Virus record (IMG/VR): IMGVR_UViG_3300007511_001544
Location: 1 to 64,000 of that record
Reading direction: 5' to 3' (one strand)
From: an uncultured virus (IMG/VR IMGVR_UViG_3300007511_001544)
Taxonomy: Duplodnaviria; Heunggongvirae; Uroviricota; Caudoviricetes
Length of the DNA stretch: 64,000 nucleotides
Made by a program: the position numbers and the translations under genes. This document shows positions 192 to 64,000 of this stretch, piece by piece. The notes under the pieces are model-generated. The model saw only the letters and a program-made list of their open reading frames with translations, did not search any database and was not told where the DNA came from. Every line of letters begins with the position of its first letter. Position 1 is the stretch's first letter.

Positions 192-434
192 TTATTTCTT
201 TTTCTCGTCGTCCAGCGTTTTCTTGCTCTTTTTACTATCCGGCAAATGTTTCTCAATTCTAAAATTAAGTAATGGCTTGCCGTTGATGGTTGGTTGTCCG
301 AGTTCGTCAGTTCCGATTTCTTTTACGATTATTCTTTTGTTCTTGAATCTTCCGCCCAAAAGAACATCTCCAACTTTGATATCTAATTTCATTTCGTTTA
401 AATACTTCCGCCACTCTGTTAGTAGTTTTTTCAT
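192..434 (-). CDS. Small phage protein with shared N-terminal leader and SH3/KOW-like beta domain
   Basis: 80 aa; begins MKKLLTEWRKYLNE, followed by IKVGDVLLGGRFKNKRIIVKEIG; abuts the stop of the upstream gene. Confidence 0.75.
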   Translation of the reverse strand: MKKLLTEWRKYLNEMKLDIKVGDVLLGGRFKNKRIIVKEIGTDELGQPTINGKPLLNFRIEKHLPDSKKSKKTLDDEKKK

Positions 435-1028
435 TTACGGCACCTGATACTCTTTTGTATCAACAATATCTATTTGATCAGATTTAAACACGATATAGGA
501 ATCGCCACCACCCTCAAAGGTGTTTTCATATTTTATGGAATCAAATCCCAAGGAGGAAAACCATTCTATAAACTCTTCCATCTCTTCTACGGGCTGAAAT
601 GATAAATCTTTAATATTTTCCCCAGACGGAGAAGTCACCACATCATCATAATAATCATTCACCATCTCGTCTGGAATTGCTGGGTGGGGTTCGCCGCCAA
701 AGCCTTCAAACATAGCCTGTAATATTGAATTGACTGACCAAGTTCCTGACCTGTTTTCTGGTAACTCCATCGTCTTGCCGCTGTCTAAATTAACTGTGTA
801 GAGGTAAACGGAGTCACCGGAGTTTATTTTTCCGTCTTTTTGTAATTTATCAGCGACGGTCAGAGCCGTCTCTTTTGTCCCAAAGTGAAAACCAACATCC
901 GAAGATATGGCTGGGTCGGCGGCCATCTGCTGCTGGAACCTATCAAATTTGGCGGGCGAGAGGTGGTAGAATGTTCCACCTGTATTTTCTTTCAAAAACT
1001 TCCGCCACTCTGTTAGGAGTTTTTTCAT
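435..1028 (-). CDS. Leader-tagged ADP-ribosyltransferase-like protein (ART-PolyVal-like)
   Basis: Leader MKKLLTEWRKFLKE, then FYHLS..FDRF, GFHFGT, YTVNL, GFDSIKYEN..YIVFKSDQI, the pattern of phage polyvalent-protein ART domains. Confidence 0.6.
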   Translation of the reverse strand: MKKLLTEWRKFLKENTGGTFYHLSPAKFDRFQQQMAADPAISSDVGFHFGTKETALTVADKLQKDGKINSGDSVYLYTVNLDSGKTMELPENRSGTWSVNSILQAMFEGFGGEPHPAIPDEMVNDYYDDVVTSPSGENIKDLSFQPVEEMEEFIEWFSSLGFDSIKYENTFEGGGDSYIVFKSDQIDIVDTKEYQVP

Positions 1029-1846
1029 ATCCCTACAGCCTCTGGGTATTTTGTTTTAGCGAACGCAATATATTTATCACGCAGTTCATTGTAAAAGAAG
1101 TCTTTCAGTTCTTCTTCTGTGTATTTTACTCTATATTCGCCGGGAGTTTCTTTCTCGTCTTCGGCGTTTATCTTGTCTCGGCGGCGGCGGAACATATCAA
1201 AGAATTGCTTGATACGCATGTCCAACGCTTCTGTGTAGGGCACCTTGTAATACTTTGCTCTTTTGTAGACCTCTTTGGTGTAGGTGTCCGTTTCAGAGTC
1301 CGAAGCATAATATCCACGAATGCCATCTATTTTATTGTAGTCCCAATTAAGTGGATTGAGAGGTCCTTTGGGTGGGTGAGCGGTGCCCAATACATCAGTG
1401 GTTTGGCCGCCGTGCTGAATTTCGTGGATAGTGATTGCTTTGAGTTCGCCGAGGTAAGCGTTGAGGTCTTGCTCGTTAAATCCGATATCTAAGTAGCTGT
1501 TGATTTTTATGTAGTCGTCTCGGCGGTCAGAGGGGTCACTCATGTGCATTCCGCCTATTTGAAACTTGTCGCCTGTTTCTTCCGCTAGTTTTTTATCAAT
1601 ATGGAAAGTAAACTCTGCTTTGTACATTTTATCTTCAAGTTCTTTTGGGAGGGTTTTGCCTGCTGAAAATGTTTTACCAACAACAAGAATTAAATCCTTG
1701 CGTGAGTTCTGAACATTCTCACTGGGAATAACCTCGTCAATAATATATTTGACGTGAGGTATCACCTTGCGGGTCAATTCTGTTGTGGCTGCTTCGTACC
1801 TTCCCTCTTGGAGAAAGCCTCGCCACTGTTCCATAATCAACTTCAT
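1025..1846 (-). CDS. Leader-tagged zincin-like metallopeptidase
   Basis: Leader MKLIMEQWRGFLQE; HExxH motif HEIQH followed by YY..xxE (YYASDSE) as a plausible third-ligand helix. Confidence 0.6.
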   Translation of the reverse strand: MKLIMEQWRGFLQEGRYEAATTELTRKVIPHVKYIIDEVIPSENVQNSRKDLILVVGKTFSAGKTLPKELEDKMYKAEFTFHIDKKLAEETGDKFQIGGMHMSDPSDRRDDYIKINSYLDIGFNEQDLNAYLGELKAITIHEIQHGGQTTDVLGTAHPPKGPLNPLNWDYNKIDGIRGYYASDSETDTYTKEVYKRAKYYKVPYTEALDMRIKQFFDMFRRRRDKINAEDEKETPGEYRVKYTEEELKDFFYNELRDKYIAFAKTKYPEAVGI

Positions 1847-1847
1847 A

Positions 1848-2714
1848 TTACTTGTCTTTTGGGTTCCAGTTTACTTCGCCAGCTTTCATCGCCGCCATTT
1901 TTGCTGTCTCTTTTGATTTTCCTTTAGCTGCGGTCTGTGGCATGAGCCCACGTTCAGGTCCAGCAGCGGCCGCCACCTGAGTAGCAGCAAATAAAGACTC
2001 GGCGTTATCAGCAATTTTGTTAATAACCTCCTCTCGGGTCTTTACCTGATAATGGGGAGCCAGAACTGCCGCAAGCTCTTCTGAGACTACCTTGGGGTTA
2101 CTTAATATTTTTACAATTGCCTCTCGGTCCCCATTTGTTTGAAATATATCCGTAGCGGCATCGGCTGGAACAAGGGGAACTGCTTTATCTACCGCAGCGA
2201 TGGCCAAATGAGCTAGCTTCAAAACGCCTTTAGGGCTATCTAATTTTCCGCCAACTTGAAAGTTATAGACTGGGATGGTGGCATCAGGATTGATCAAATA
2301 TACCTGGGACCATCTGTGGTGACCATCTACTATATATTTTCCGTTTGCCGTAATAATTCGCCCACCTACATTGGCTGGCTTTACTGATCCTTTGGCGATG
2401 GCGGAGCCGCCTTGAGGCGCTTGAGTTGAAAGGTAACCAAGAGAATCCGCTAGTCCAATCTGGCTTTGAGTTGGCTGAAGGTCTTTCACGGGTATATCCG
2501 CCTCTTCTACTGCCACCACATCATCTTGTGCTGCTTGATCTTCAATGCCCATATTTAAGAATTCTTGAAATTTGGGATCTTTGATGCTGTTTGCCAATTT
2601 GCCAACAAACTCTTCATAAGGAGCATCAATTAAGTCTAATAAAACTTTTCTTTTACTTTTATCATACTCTGCCTCTTTCAAAAAATTTCGCCATTCTGTC
2701 ATTAATTTTTTCAT
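1848..2714 (-). CDS. Leader-tagged ParB/Srx-like domain protein
   Basis: Leader MKKLMTEWRNFLKE; IPVKDLQPTQ..I and YIVDGHHRW motifs of the ParB/sulfiredoxin fold. Confidence 0.7.
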   Translation of the reverse strand: MKKLMTEWRNFLKEAEYDKSKRKVLLDLIDAPYEEFVGKLANSIKDPKFQEFLNMGIEDQAAQDDVVAVEEADIPVKDLQPTQSQIGLADSLGYLSTQAPQGGSAIAKGSVKPANVGGRIITANGKYIVDGHHRWSQVYLINPDATIPVYNFQVGGKLDSPKGVLKLAHLAIAAVDKAVPLVPADAATDIFQTNGDREAIVKILSNPKVVSEELAAVLAPHYQVKTREEVINKIADNAESLFAATQVAAAAGPERGLMPQTAAKGKSKETAKMAAMKAGEVNWNPKDK

Positions 2715-3322
2715 CGTGATTGTACGGTGTAAGTTTTTTGCTCACCGCCTCCAAAATTATCTGTACGGAAATCATCTTTCCTCATTACTGTAATTACTTT
2801 TATGGTGTCCGGACCTTTTCGCATATCCAAAACGGCTATGACGTTGAGGGCTGGAACTTTACCTCTGCCCACCATACGAATATGGAAAGGCTCATCGTTC
2901 GCAAGTTCGCCGTTCGCAAAGTCTTGAATGATTTTGCCGATGGCCATCTCAATTGCTTGGATGATGGCTTGGTTGGAAATCTTTTCGTCGTGGCGGAACT
3001 GGCGTTCCTTGCTGTGTCGGGTTCCCTCAAGGTCAGTATCTTTAAGATTGATAATGACGTTGATGCCTTTGACTTTGGTACTGTAGGCTTGGTCTGCATT
3101 TATGTCAGACATTTTATCTTCTTTGATGGCTGCTCGTCCAACTGTAATAACGCTTGTTCTATCTCTCTTATCGGTTACTTCTACCTTATAAGACTCGCCA
3201 TCAAATGATAGGACTTTGCCTTTGTTGGCGGCAAATAATCCACGAGGAAGTTTTACTATTTTTCCTACTAGACTTTTGTCTTCATTCAGGTATTTCCGCC
3301 ACTGTTCCATTAATAGTTTCAT
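2711..3322 (-). CDS. Leader-tagged two-domain protein: KOW/SH3-like domain plus possible BECR/RelE-like RNase
   Basis: Leader MKLLMEQWRKYLNE; VGKIVKL..G..GKV..beta domain; C-terminal TRHSKER...ISNQAI...IKVITVMRK pattern resembles BECR-fold toxins. Confidence 0.45.
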   Translation of the reverse strand: MKLLMEQWRKYLNEDKSLVGKIVKLPRGLFAANKGKVLSFDGESYKVEVTDKRDRTSVITVGRAAIKEDKMSDINADQAYSTKVKGINVIINLKDTDLEGTRHSKERQFRHDEKISNQAIIQAIEMAIGKIIQDFANGELANDEPFHIRMVGRGKVPALNVIAVLDMRKGPDTIKVITVMRKDDFRTDNFGGGEQKTYTVQSR

Positions 3323-3331
3323 TAATGCTCC

Positions 3332-4279
3332 TCATGCCATCAAAGCAATCTTGAATAAATAGGCATCAGAATCAATAAACGGCGCTTTGTCTTTCCGCTC
3401 TTGGAATACATCTGGTGGCATTTCTCCAATATCTTTATAGCCTGACGTGTCCATCAATCGAACTTCTATATCATAAGCCAGCAAAGCCTTCACAAGTTTC
3501 ATGGCTTTTTTGTGTGCGTCGTTGTCTAACCCCAGCAGAACTGGTGTGTCGTTTTTTACGATCTTCCTGAAAAGTCTGCTGTCTTCTCGTAGGGTTGAGC
3601 CGAGGAGCGGGATGCTGTTCTCACCAGCAACGATAGCATCAAAGACGCCCTCAACCAGAGTGACCTCTCGTTCCCAATCAATCAACAGTTCGTTAAATAT
3701 AATGTCTTTGTTTCCGGGTCCGTTCAAATACGGAGGCCAAATGTTGGGGTCATATGTGCGGGATGTAAAAAAGTTACAATAACCGTCTTCGTCAAATGAT
3801 GGGAGGATTATTCTGTTTTTGTATTCGCCGGAAGCACAGTAGCCTATCTTCCAAAACAGAATGTCTTTCCCTACAACGTCACGTTTGCGGAGATAGTTTA
3901 GGGCTAATCTTGCAGTGGTCGAATGAGAGCGACCAGTTAGTGTTTGAAACTCATTTGGAAGGTCAATTCTCTGCGGAGAATCTTCTTCCTTGGCGAATAG
4001 GTTGTCTAGGTCGCCTAGCTCAACATCGGCGTCAAAGTCCTTCCATCTATGGATGTGACTTATATCCCCCCAGCGACGTACAAGTCGTCGTAAGTTTTTT
4101 GTTCGCCAATCACATGCCCAACATTTAGCCACATTTTTGTCAAAGTTGACTGATAGTTTTGGCTTATGATGTGAGCAACATCTGGATTCGTACAGATACT
4201 CCTTACCCTGACGAGATGGTCTTCCCAGGATCTCGTCAAGGATTTTCTTTTTCTTTACTGAGTTGGGATCACTAAACAA
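3332..4279 (-). CDS. DNA primase (DnaG-like, Zn finger plus TOPRIM)
   Basis: N-terminal C-x2-H/C-x2-C zinc finger (CCSHH...CWAC), YLRKR, IGY, RIILP, TOPRIM motifs VEGVFD and LDND, KDIGE. Confidence 0.85.
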   Translation of the reverse strand: MFSDPNSVKKKKILDEILGRPSRQGKEYLYESRCCSHHKPKLSVNFDKNVAKCWACDWRTKNLRRLVRRWGDISHIHRWKDFDADVELGDLDNLFAKEEDSPQRIDLPNEFQTLTGRSHSTTARLALNYLRKRDVVGKDILFWKIGYCASGEYKNRIILPSFDEDGYCNFFTSRTYDPNIWPPYLNGPGNKDIIFNELLIDWEREVTLVEGVFDAIVAGENSIPLLGSTLREDSRLFRKIVKNDTPVLLGLDNDAHKKAMKLVKALLAYDIEVRLMDTSGYKDIGEMPPDVFQERKDKAPFIDSDAYLFKIALMA

Positions 4280-4978: not shown

Positions 4979-5164
4979 TTACTTCTTTTTTACGTCTGCC
5001 TTGCACATTTCTTCAGCTTCGGCTTTAGATAGTTTTGGCTTTCCTTTAAAGTTCTTGCGGGATTTGCCCGCTTGAGCACACGCCCATCGGCGTTGTTTTT
5101 CTGATTCTACTTCGTTAATAACTTCTTGTACCATTTGACGAAGCTGACTCATTGTAATCTTCAT
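4979..5164 (-). CDS. Small basic phage protein with amphipathic N-terminal leader
   Basis: 61 aa; MKITMSQLRQMVQEVINE, then SEKQRRWACAQ and a Lys-rich tail; preceded by TATTTA-N4-ATG. Confidence 0.7.
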   Translation of the reverse strand: MKITMSQLRQMVQEVINEVESEKQRRWACAQAGKSRKNFKGKPKLSKAEAEEMCKADVKKK

Positions 5165-63468: not shown

Positions 63469-64000
63469 TTATTCCTCATAGTTTATAGGCTCGATAATCA
63501 TGTTATCGTAAAATTCTTCTCTAGTTAAGAGCGGATACATATCTTCGAATGGTCTAGACACGATTCTTCCGTCTTTTGTCTTTGTCGATATAAGCGTTGG
63601 AACAACTTCTTGCCATTTTTGACACATCACCTCACACACAACTGGACCATCATAATTCAGAACCTTTTGTATGCCATCTTCCAACCCCTCAACAGTTTCA
63701 ATCTTAAAATACTTCAGCCCGTAGGCGTCGGTAATTTTTTCTATGTTTGGAAGTGACACTCCAGAATCGCCGTCAACACCTATAAATCTGCCATCAAAAA
63801 ACTTTCTCTGTGTTGTTCTGATAGACAAATATCCGTGATTGTTCCACACGAAAAGTTTTATCGGTAGGTTATAATGTTTTATTGTCTGAAGTTCTTGGAT
63901 GTTTGTTTGGAAAGATCCATCGCCTGTAATTCCTATAACCTCTTTATCTCCCCTTGCAACACTAACCCCAATGGCGGCGGGGATCGTAAACCCCATGTCT
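63469..64000 (-). CDS. Acetolactate synthase-like ThDP enzyme (YerE-like), C-terminal part; runs off right edge
   Basis: MGFTIPAAIG, GDGS...NN ThDP motif, GYLSIR, S.P.EDM.P C-terminus. Confidence 0.8.
   Translation of the reverse strand, partial: DMGFTIPAAIGVSVARGDKEVIGITGDGSFQTNIQELQTIKHYNLPIKLFVWNNHGYLSIRTTQRKFFDGRFIGVDGDSGVSLPNIEKITDAYGLKYFKIETVEGLEDGIQKVLNYDGPVVCEVMCQKWQEVVPTLISTKTKDGRIVSRPFEDMYPLLTREEFYDNMIIEPINYEE

Follow-up and report, generated by a model that had tools for sequence, protein, structure and literature searches.

A shared leader on polyvalent-like cargo genes of an uncultured tailed phage suggests an expanded T4-type internal-protein system

Proteins that enter the host together with phage DNA are at work before phage genes are expressed, and they are a rich source of anti-defence functions that is hard to predict. 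In phage T4 a short capsid-targeting sequence (CTS) at the N-terminus marks such cargo. According to PMC9026906, residues 4 and 7 of the CTS act in targeting and residues 8 and 10 direct cutting; internal proteins IPII and IPIII both begin with MKTYQEFIAE. The T4 capsid protein gp23 loses its first 65 residues (PMC9958956), and cleavage motifs of related phages are given in PMC5694885. For the multi-domain polyvalent proteins of phages and conjugative elements, PMC5512222 already reports solo versions of their domains and proposes accretion from them, and head-packaged ADP-ribosyltransferases (ARTs) are a stated theme of PMC9503650. Here we describe a cluster of five genes in a 64,000-nucleotide stretch of DNA from an uncultured tailed phage (IMG/VR record IMGVR_UViG_3300007511_001544, positions 1 to 64,000; below, the window), which is the first 64 kb of a linear contig of 118,568 nt. 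The genes, adjacent, co-oriented and abutting on the minus strand at 192-3322, all begin with one 14-residue leader, and we suggest that they belong to an expanded internal-protein system of the T4 type. The genes are as follows.

192..434, minus strand: fifth tagged gene, 80 aa, small basic module; leader 393-434
435..1028, minus strand: tagged gene for an ART-PolyVal-like protein of 197 aa, with the leader at 987-1028; His22, Glu172 and, where the family has Tyr, His48
1025..1846, minus strand: tagged gene for a zincin-like metallopeptidase of 273 aa, with the leader at 1805-1846; HEIQH encoded at 1412-1426, and Glu185 as putative third ligand
1848..2714, minus strand: tagged ParB/Srx-fold protein (predicted), 288 aa; leader 2673-2714; DGHHRW at 2310-2327
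2711..3322, minus strand: tagged gene of two modules, 203 aa, with the leader at 3281-3322; a small module of aa 15-68 (3119-3280) that closes with I-K-E; BECR-like module aa 69-203 (2714-3118)

The shared leader and the T4-type head genes

The leader has the consensus M-K-[KL]-[LI]-[LM]-[TE]-[EQ]-W-R-x-[FY]-L-x-E. A strict form of this pattern occurs five times in the window and eight times in the contig, and was absent from 100 triplet shuffles. Pairs of leaders differ at two to five synonymous codons, so it is the peptide and not the DNA that is conserved. Residues W8, F/Y11, L12 and E14 are spaced like Y4, F7, I8 and E10 of the T4 CTS, as a match of pattern only. Nor is the leader a new device, since it has this spacing in a phage with a head protease of the T4 type.

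The window's own partial contig encodes baseplate, endolysin, primase, RuvC-like and late-sigma proteins; a search of it for a capsid gene found none, and the other head genes are likewise missing. They are known from an overlapping record, G006 (99.91% identity across 21,359 nt), which extends beyond the left end of the window with terminase, portal, protease, scaffold, capsid, neck and sheath genes, the first five of them 12-24 kb past the window start. The labels terminase, portal, scaffold, neck and sheath follow gene order and inspection by eye rather than a family search. The G006 protease resembles T4 gp21 (32%, E 1e-23) and matches Peptidase_S77 above the cut-off, and the capsid protein resembles T4 gp23 (E 6e-27); LL-x-E58, near the T4 cut site, is kept in all six aligned capsid proteins. 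With a propeptide in the range of 10-19 residues shared by unrelated proteins, the spacing of the CTS, and a gp21-type protease beside a gp23-type capsid protein (via G006), the cluster has, at the level of sequence, every feature by which a T4-type CTS system is recognised. Near-complete relatives are 175-190 kb long.

Position-specific matrices (PSSM) were built from 60 and 27 leaders of other loci, all 60 training leaders ending in phi-x-E by selection, and were run on gene calls from our own simple caller. Scores of at least 20 were reached by 10 of the 148 called genes of the contig, always at the N-terminus. In the relatives G001 and G004, 22 of 240 gene rows and 12 of 164 rows (one a duplicate), respectively, scored at least 16, again at N-termini only, and none of those in G001 was a replication gene; the maximum among 720 shuffled controls was 11.8. 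The window also holds a gene with a second type of leader.

4979..5164, minus strand: 61-aa gene, second leader type (MKIT..QLR.[MI][IV].E); PSSM score 34.9 against the shuffled maximum of 11.8

Both types are found on the same cargo families in relatives, and both occur in a second tagged cluster at 95.1-99.3 kb of the contig. This cluster (G000:C1 95130-99330; L092) is on the minus strand and has about eight genes, which encode, among others, a 2H-like protein, a paralog of the zincin and a protein of 376 aa whose start looks ART-like by eye. Just beyond the left end of the window, at G006:C1:22511-30737 (L001:11604-19830), a 1,050-aa gene, repair-nuclease-like by eye, is flanked on either side by short genes, about ten in all, that bear the second type of leader. 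The second type is present, too, on a conserved head-module gene that follows the protease.

The leader is an amphipathic helix, and in relatives tags are found at C-termini and internally as well. Of 120 ParB-cargo homologs, 104 show one of four tag patterns at either end, as do 14 of 280 untagged genes; the contrast is descriptive because the patterns were written after the sequences had been seen. They include the T4-like KTF[EK]QF and the scaffold-tail-like RW..LAG; by type, the ParB homologs bear T4-like KTF/KTY tags (7 N-terminal, 28 C-terminal) and, in five cases, a tag like the last helix of the scaffold. Seen by eye, that last helix (NRWATLAG) and the first helix of the capsid protein (LLSKWE) have the phi-phi-x-x-W spacing of the leader (L095:479-1483, 1501-3276), and in G001 a separate gene with a scaffold-tail-like start lies downstream of a CTATTTAC site (L037, G001:57847). 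Mimicry of capsid and scaffold helices by the leader is a lead only, since the PSSM did not rank those stretches.

A candidate control element lies ahead of the cluster.

3355..3362, minus strand: CTATTTAT, a late-promoter candidate that lies upstream of the first tagged gene by 40 nt, within the primase gene's 3' end

In three genomes, 8 of 13, 16 of 31 and 18 of 30 sites of the motif CTAWTTAY lie upstream of a called gene start by no more than 100 nt, compared with 6% of random positions, and scaffold, neck, sheath, baseplate and tagged genes are among those that have it upstream. We infer from this distribution that CTAWTTAY may be a late promoter. For the second tagged cluster, copies of CTATTTAT lie upstream, at contig positions 99478 and 97186. 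In the literature searched (most subscription papers being beyond reach) no account was found of this leader or of tag-linked fusion, and the passages of PMC7824862 and PMC13573597 that were consulted say nothing on such leaders.

Predicted folds of the tagged cargo

The 435-1028 product, in which YHLSPAKFDRF, GFHFG and SYIVFKSDQI are found, matches the ART family PF18760 at E 2.8e-4 (22 bits, under the curated cut-off of 31.2), and the same family is matched by 16 of its 18 family members at E <=0.01, the best at 5e-16. It also matches two large phage protein families (1,664 and 2,564 positions). The published triad of polyvalent ARTs consists of His in strand 1, Tyr in strand 2 and Asp in strand 5 (PMC5512222). 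In the alignment of 18 sequences His22 and Glu172 are invariant, and the strand-2 position, Tyr in the published triad, is His in all 18, while the Asp176 position varies. In all likelihood, then, the product is an ART-fold variant of putative activity. The ART profile gave nothing significant against the sequences of solved structures, and tblastn found no homolog in cultured phages.

In the 1025-1846 product, HEIQH occupies residues 141-145. His141, Glu142, His145 and Glu185 are invariant in 24 of 24 sequences, the distant rows of which have 18-30% identity. A model with a predicted local distance difference test score (pLDDT) of 92 consists of an N-terminal helix, a three-stranded sheet, the HExxH helix and a Glu-bearing helix, and in the order of these elements it fits the description of the polyvalent metallopeptidase (MPTase). 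Foldseek against BFVD returned a 'Zincin protease' of phage AR9 (E 5.8e-3). Pfam gave scattered weak peptidase matches, LPD23 is a lead at 0.88, the profile matched nothing significantly among sequences of solved structures, and tblastn found no homolog in cultured phages. A zincin fold is likely.

DGHHRW, at residues 130-135 of the 1848-2714 product, is at least 90% conserved among 30 family members and has the Arg expected in the active-site motif. The product matches ParBc_2 at E 0.008, under the cut-off, and phrog_2859 at E 5e-7; ParBc_2 is weakly matched by 13 of the 30. Nothing significant was found with the profile among the sequences of solved structures, where only the DGHHRW of SerK-type proteins was touched (E ~1). 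From these matches a ParB fold appears very probable. A homolog (E 1e-18) is carried by the cultured Microcystis phage Mel-JY01, in which both it and a neighbour have short leaders ending L-x-E (L090:11947-13933), making this phage a usable experimental system. In the homolog itself (WWT39393.1) the last three leader residues read L-K-E.

The 2711-3322 gene was overlooked at first as a fusion of two modules. In homologs its first module is absent or replaced by others, and the boundaries lie directly after phi-x-E. The second module contains TRHSKER (aa 101-107) and VITV (aa 176-179), and its model has a pLDDT of 70. Comparison of this model with VIA returned CdiA, HigB2, RelE, ParE, YoeB, BrnT and RegB, which we take together as BECR, at Z 3-5.6 (CdiA 7vmc at Z 5.1, with a root-mean-square deviation of 3.8 over 88 aligned; HigB2 at Z 4.8). 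Foldseek against the PDB gave nothing at E <=0.001 (best E 0.016), and tblastn of the domain matched one uncultured record. [quoted passage not shown] We think a BECR fold of residues 69-203 fairly probable.

The 192-434 product has no Pfam or PHROG match, and its module recurs internally after phi-x-E in relatives. It also occurs in another phage group (L008-L014), where the neighbours share a different leader (MNKxAFYxGY-like). A complex prediction that paired this 80-aa product with the capsid protein of G006 scored 0.00 and counts neither for nor against an interaction. The fetched loci contain 150 tagged sequences that fall into 73 cargo families, most without a known domain; this is no unbiased census, since the loci were found via these cargo and overlap. 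A Pfam search of 42 tagged cargo of relatives placed seven above the cut-off (ART-PolyVal twice, GNAT, HD, 2H-type, Nudix and SAM lyase) and four below. The protein of the SAM-lyase family (E 5e-14) is from G004 (L021:17018-17602); SAM lyases counter restriction. Close relatives carry different cargo at the same locus.

All motifs that a first-pass annotation of the window had listed for 435-3322, a span that excludes the 80-aa fifth gene, are present, where it had placed them, in the translated minus-strand open reading frames, and across homologs of all four cargo the residues presumed catalytic vary little or not at all. The His at the family's Tyr position of the ART had escaped it. Its ART-like guess is well supported, its zincin and ParB/Srx guesses moderately so, and the BECR RNase guess survives at weak-to-moderate strength. 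The broader claim, that the set mirrors the domains of polyvalent proteins, holds as a likeness of repertoire, and the GNAT, 2H and HD domains tagged in relatives are likewise placed in polyvalent proteins by Iyer 2017/2021. It does not extend to clade membership of three of the four: the Pfam families of polyvalent MPTase, DdrB-ParB and PBECR did not match the cargo, and the zincin, ParB and BECR domains can therefore be placed in the same superfamilies but not, on this evidence, in those clades.

Fused and separate forms

Polyvalent proteins have 2-15 domains per polypeptide, whereas four of the five genes here are single-domain and 2711-3322 has two modules. It had been proposed that the common leader replaces fusion into one giant polypeptide. 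This is only half right, because fused and separate forms coexist among relatives, with the leader or the cut motif at the joints. At 7 of 20 loci with the BECR domain, it ends a fusion protein of 980-1,040 aa with a nucleotidyltransferase-like part (a weak match) and, in all four that were inspected, another DGHHRW domain. Among 46 zincin relatives, six have lengths of 405-1,010 aa, and in four of these the zincin is immediately preceded by a complete leader-like helix. Homolog searches for ART, ParB and BECR covered 0.55-1.75 times the query length, a range outside which fused ART and fused ParB-family forms would fall.

Where the module that starts a tagged protein is found inside another protein, phi-x-E is no more than two residues away from the joint in 41 of 50 contexts. 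Counted by junction type the figure is 14 of 19, against a background of 11%, an enrichment that is compatible with cutting and does not demonstrate it, since inheritance from a neighbouring leader or microhomology recombination could explain it. Among the five misses are a ParB linker of low complexity and a distant phage that has a different tag. Single tagged cargo and multi-enzyme, polyvalent-like chains are likely to be two states of one delivery system.

The contig itself encodes a 657-aa protein (G000:C1 73571-75544; L093) with an N-terminal part that is ligase-like by eye and a weak nucleotidyltransferase match; its counterparts in L080 and L082-L087 are extended by ParB-like and BECR-like domains. 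Two further regions are of a different nature. From 44471 to the end of the window at 64000, and on to about 69400 of the contig, there is an island of some 25 genes of the sugar-nucleotide and glycosyltransferase kinds and related ones, lower in G+C (by eye, from the starts of the reading frames). At 90655-95101 and 99489-99893 of the contig (G000:C1) there are three genes that, by their motifs, may resemble a PrkA/SpoVR/YeaH set, and a putative pilin-like protein, which may hint at the host group.

Interpretation and relation to known systems

We give a probability of about 0.7 to the reading that the cluster is part of an expanded T4-type internal-protein system, with late synthesis, prohead loading, trimming, injection and early action on the host. 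The tagged proteins would be made late, and the leader would load them into the forming head, where the gp21-type protease would trim them after [FY]L-x-E. The trimmed proteins would be injected with the DNA, and the predicted ADP-ribosyltransferase, metallopeptidase, ParB-fold NTPase or nuclease and BECR RNase would act early on the host. Late transcription, packaging, cleavage, injection, catalysis and host targets are all inferred from genes, and for a host-directed activity of most of the four cargo we see an even chance. Because the head protease would cut internal joints too, fusion would likely be near neutral, so that separate genes and polyvalent-like chains would be interconvertible. 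It is possible, at slightly below even odds, that this extends to a large T4-related clade with an open cargo library, in which any enzyme tagged at either end is loaded and, since the leader's last three residues are where the head protease cuts, adjacent cargo genes are free to join and to separate.

A number of results weigh against this reading. The head genes had to be taken from G006, the window's contig being without them. Phi-x-E is frequent in any case, occurring within the first 40 aa of 161 of 280 untagged genes, and at joints it could be inherited or come from microhomology; in P0163 half a zincin is joined to a BECR domain at a shared E-D-K-M. No tag pattern is found in 11 of 25 ART and 10 of 23 zincin homologs, some of which look truncated or have a diverged helix. 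As for the folds, the ART lacks the His-Tyr-Asp triad of PF18760, with His in place of Tyr, and its strand-5 acid is Asp or Glu in just 12 of 18 sequences (strands mapped by eye). The zincin model found nothing in the PDB with Foldseek at E <=0.001 and only helical bundles, with no clear PDB match, with VIA. The BECR rows are below Z 6 and are tied at the top with unrelated folds. Among the 42 tagged cargo, 31 are without any Pfam match, and many cargo of the second leader type are short charged proteins more like core fillers than enzymes.

These last observations, of many small and charged proteins without a known domain, would equally fit proteins that are packaged via the leader and then have roles in head assembly, or are dispensable passengers like T4 IPII and IPIII, the zincin processing head proteins and the others being partly decayed. 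The second-type leader on the conserved head-module gene after the protease and the non-canonical triad of the ART are in keeping with this, as is an effect of T4 IPIII on head assembly (PMC9026906). We nevertheless think it unlikely: catalytic-looking residues are invariant across 20-30% identity, relatives tag SAM lyase, Nudix, GNAT and canonical ART-PolyVal proteins, and at one and the same locus even close relatives hold different cargo, which is what host conflict would lead one to expect.

Two other explanations concern the leader itself. As an amphipathic helix that also occurs C-terminally and internally, it could serve localisation or oligomerisation, for instance docking on a viral assembly site, with the enzymes acting late in the producing cell, and late expression would suit either use. 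However, phi-x-E likewise marks the borders of C-terminal tags and of internal modules, in keeping with removal by the head protease, and tag variants resemble the T4 CTS and the C-terminal helix of the scaffold; we regard this explanation as improbable. The start/stop overlaps between genes, the recombination at the leader and one pair of leaders identical at 38 of 42 nt are what a DNA-level cassette without protein function would give, whether as a start for translational coupling or as a recombination handle. Yet the other pairs are identical at only 21-34 of 42 nt and have two to five synonymous changes, tags are also C-terminal, and unrelated tag types swap on one cargo family, which leaves a mere cassette very improbable.

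If the open-library reading is correct, the leader would be a sequence handle for injected anti-defence enzymes, and by marking injected proteins it would give a direct list of candidates. The four cargo would then be new families, namely a His-His-Glu ART variant, a zincin, a ParB protein and a BECR RNase. With fused and separate forms occurring in one clade, the proposal that polyvalent proteins arose from solo domains can be put to the test. This occurrence also suggests that the head protease, and not a built-in peptidase, frees the domains; an open library would be a visible route for that origin.

Compared with the internal proteins IPI-III and Alt of T4 and their CTS, as described in PMC9026906, PMC9958956 and PMC5694885, the cluster has in common a short N-terminal propeptide on unrelated and variable cargo, the spacing aromatic-x-x-aromatic-aliphatic-x-Glu, a gp21-type protease with a gp23-type capsid protein, and an ART among the cargo. 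It differs in that the leader has 14 residues and a Trp where T4 has 10, in the number of tagged genes (T4 has 4, this partial contig about 10 and a near-complete relative 22), and in having several interchangeable types of tag that may also be C-terminal or internal. Packaging is here a prediction, and the ART of the cluster is of an H-Y-D-like clade where Alt belongs to the R-S-E clade. With polyvalent proteins (PMC5512222) the cluster shares a repertoire of ART, zincin MPTase, ParB/Srx and BECR domains, with GNAT, 2H and HD in relatives, and a predicted delivery in the virion for early action. Unlike them, four of its five genes are single-domain, only the ART matches a polyvalent Pfam family, and that below the cut-off, and release would depend on a head serine protease at phi-x-E joints instead of a built-in MPTase. 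Head effectors fused to MuF or portal proteins (PMC9503650 and PMC5512222) likewise combine a constant N-terminal address with variable enzymatic cargo, but their address is a folded head protein, whereas here it would be a peptide of 14 residues.

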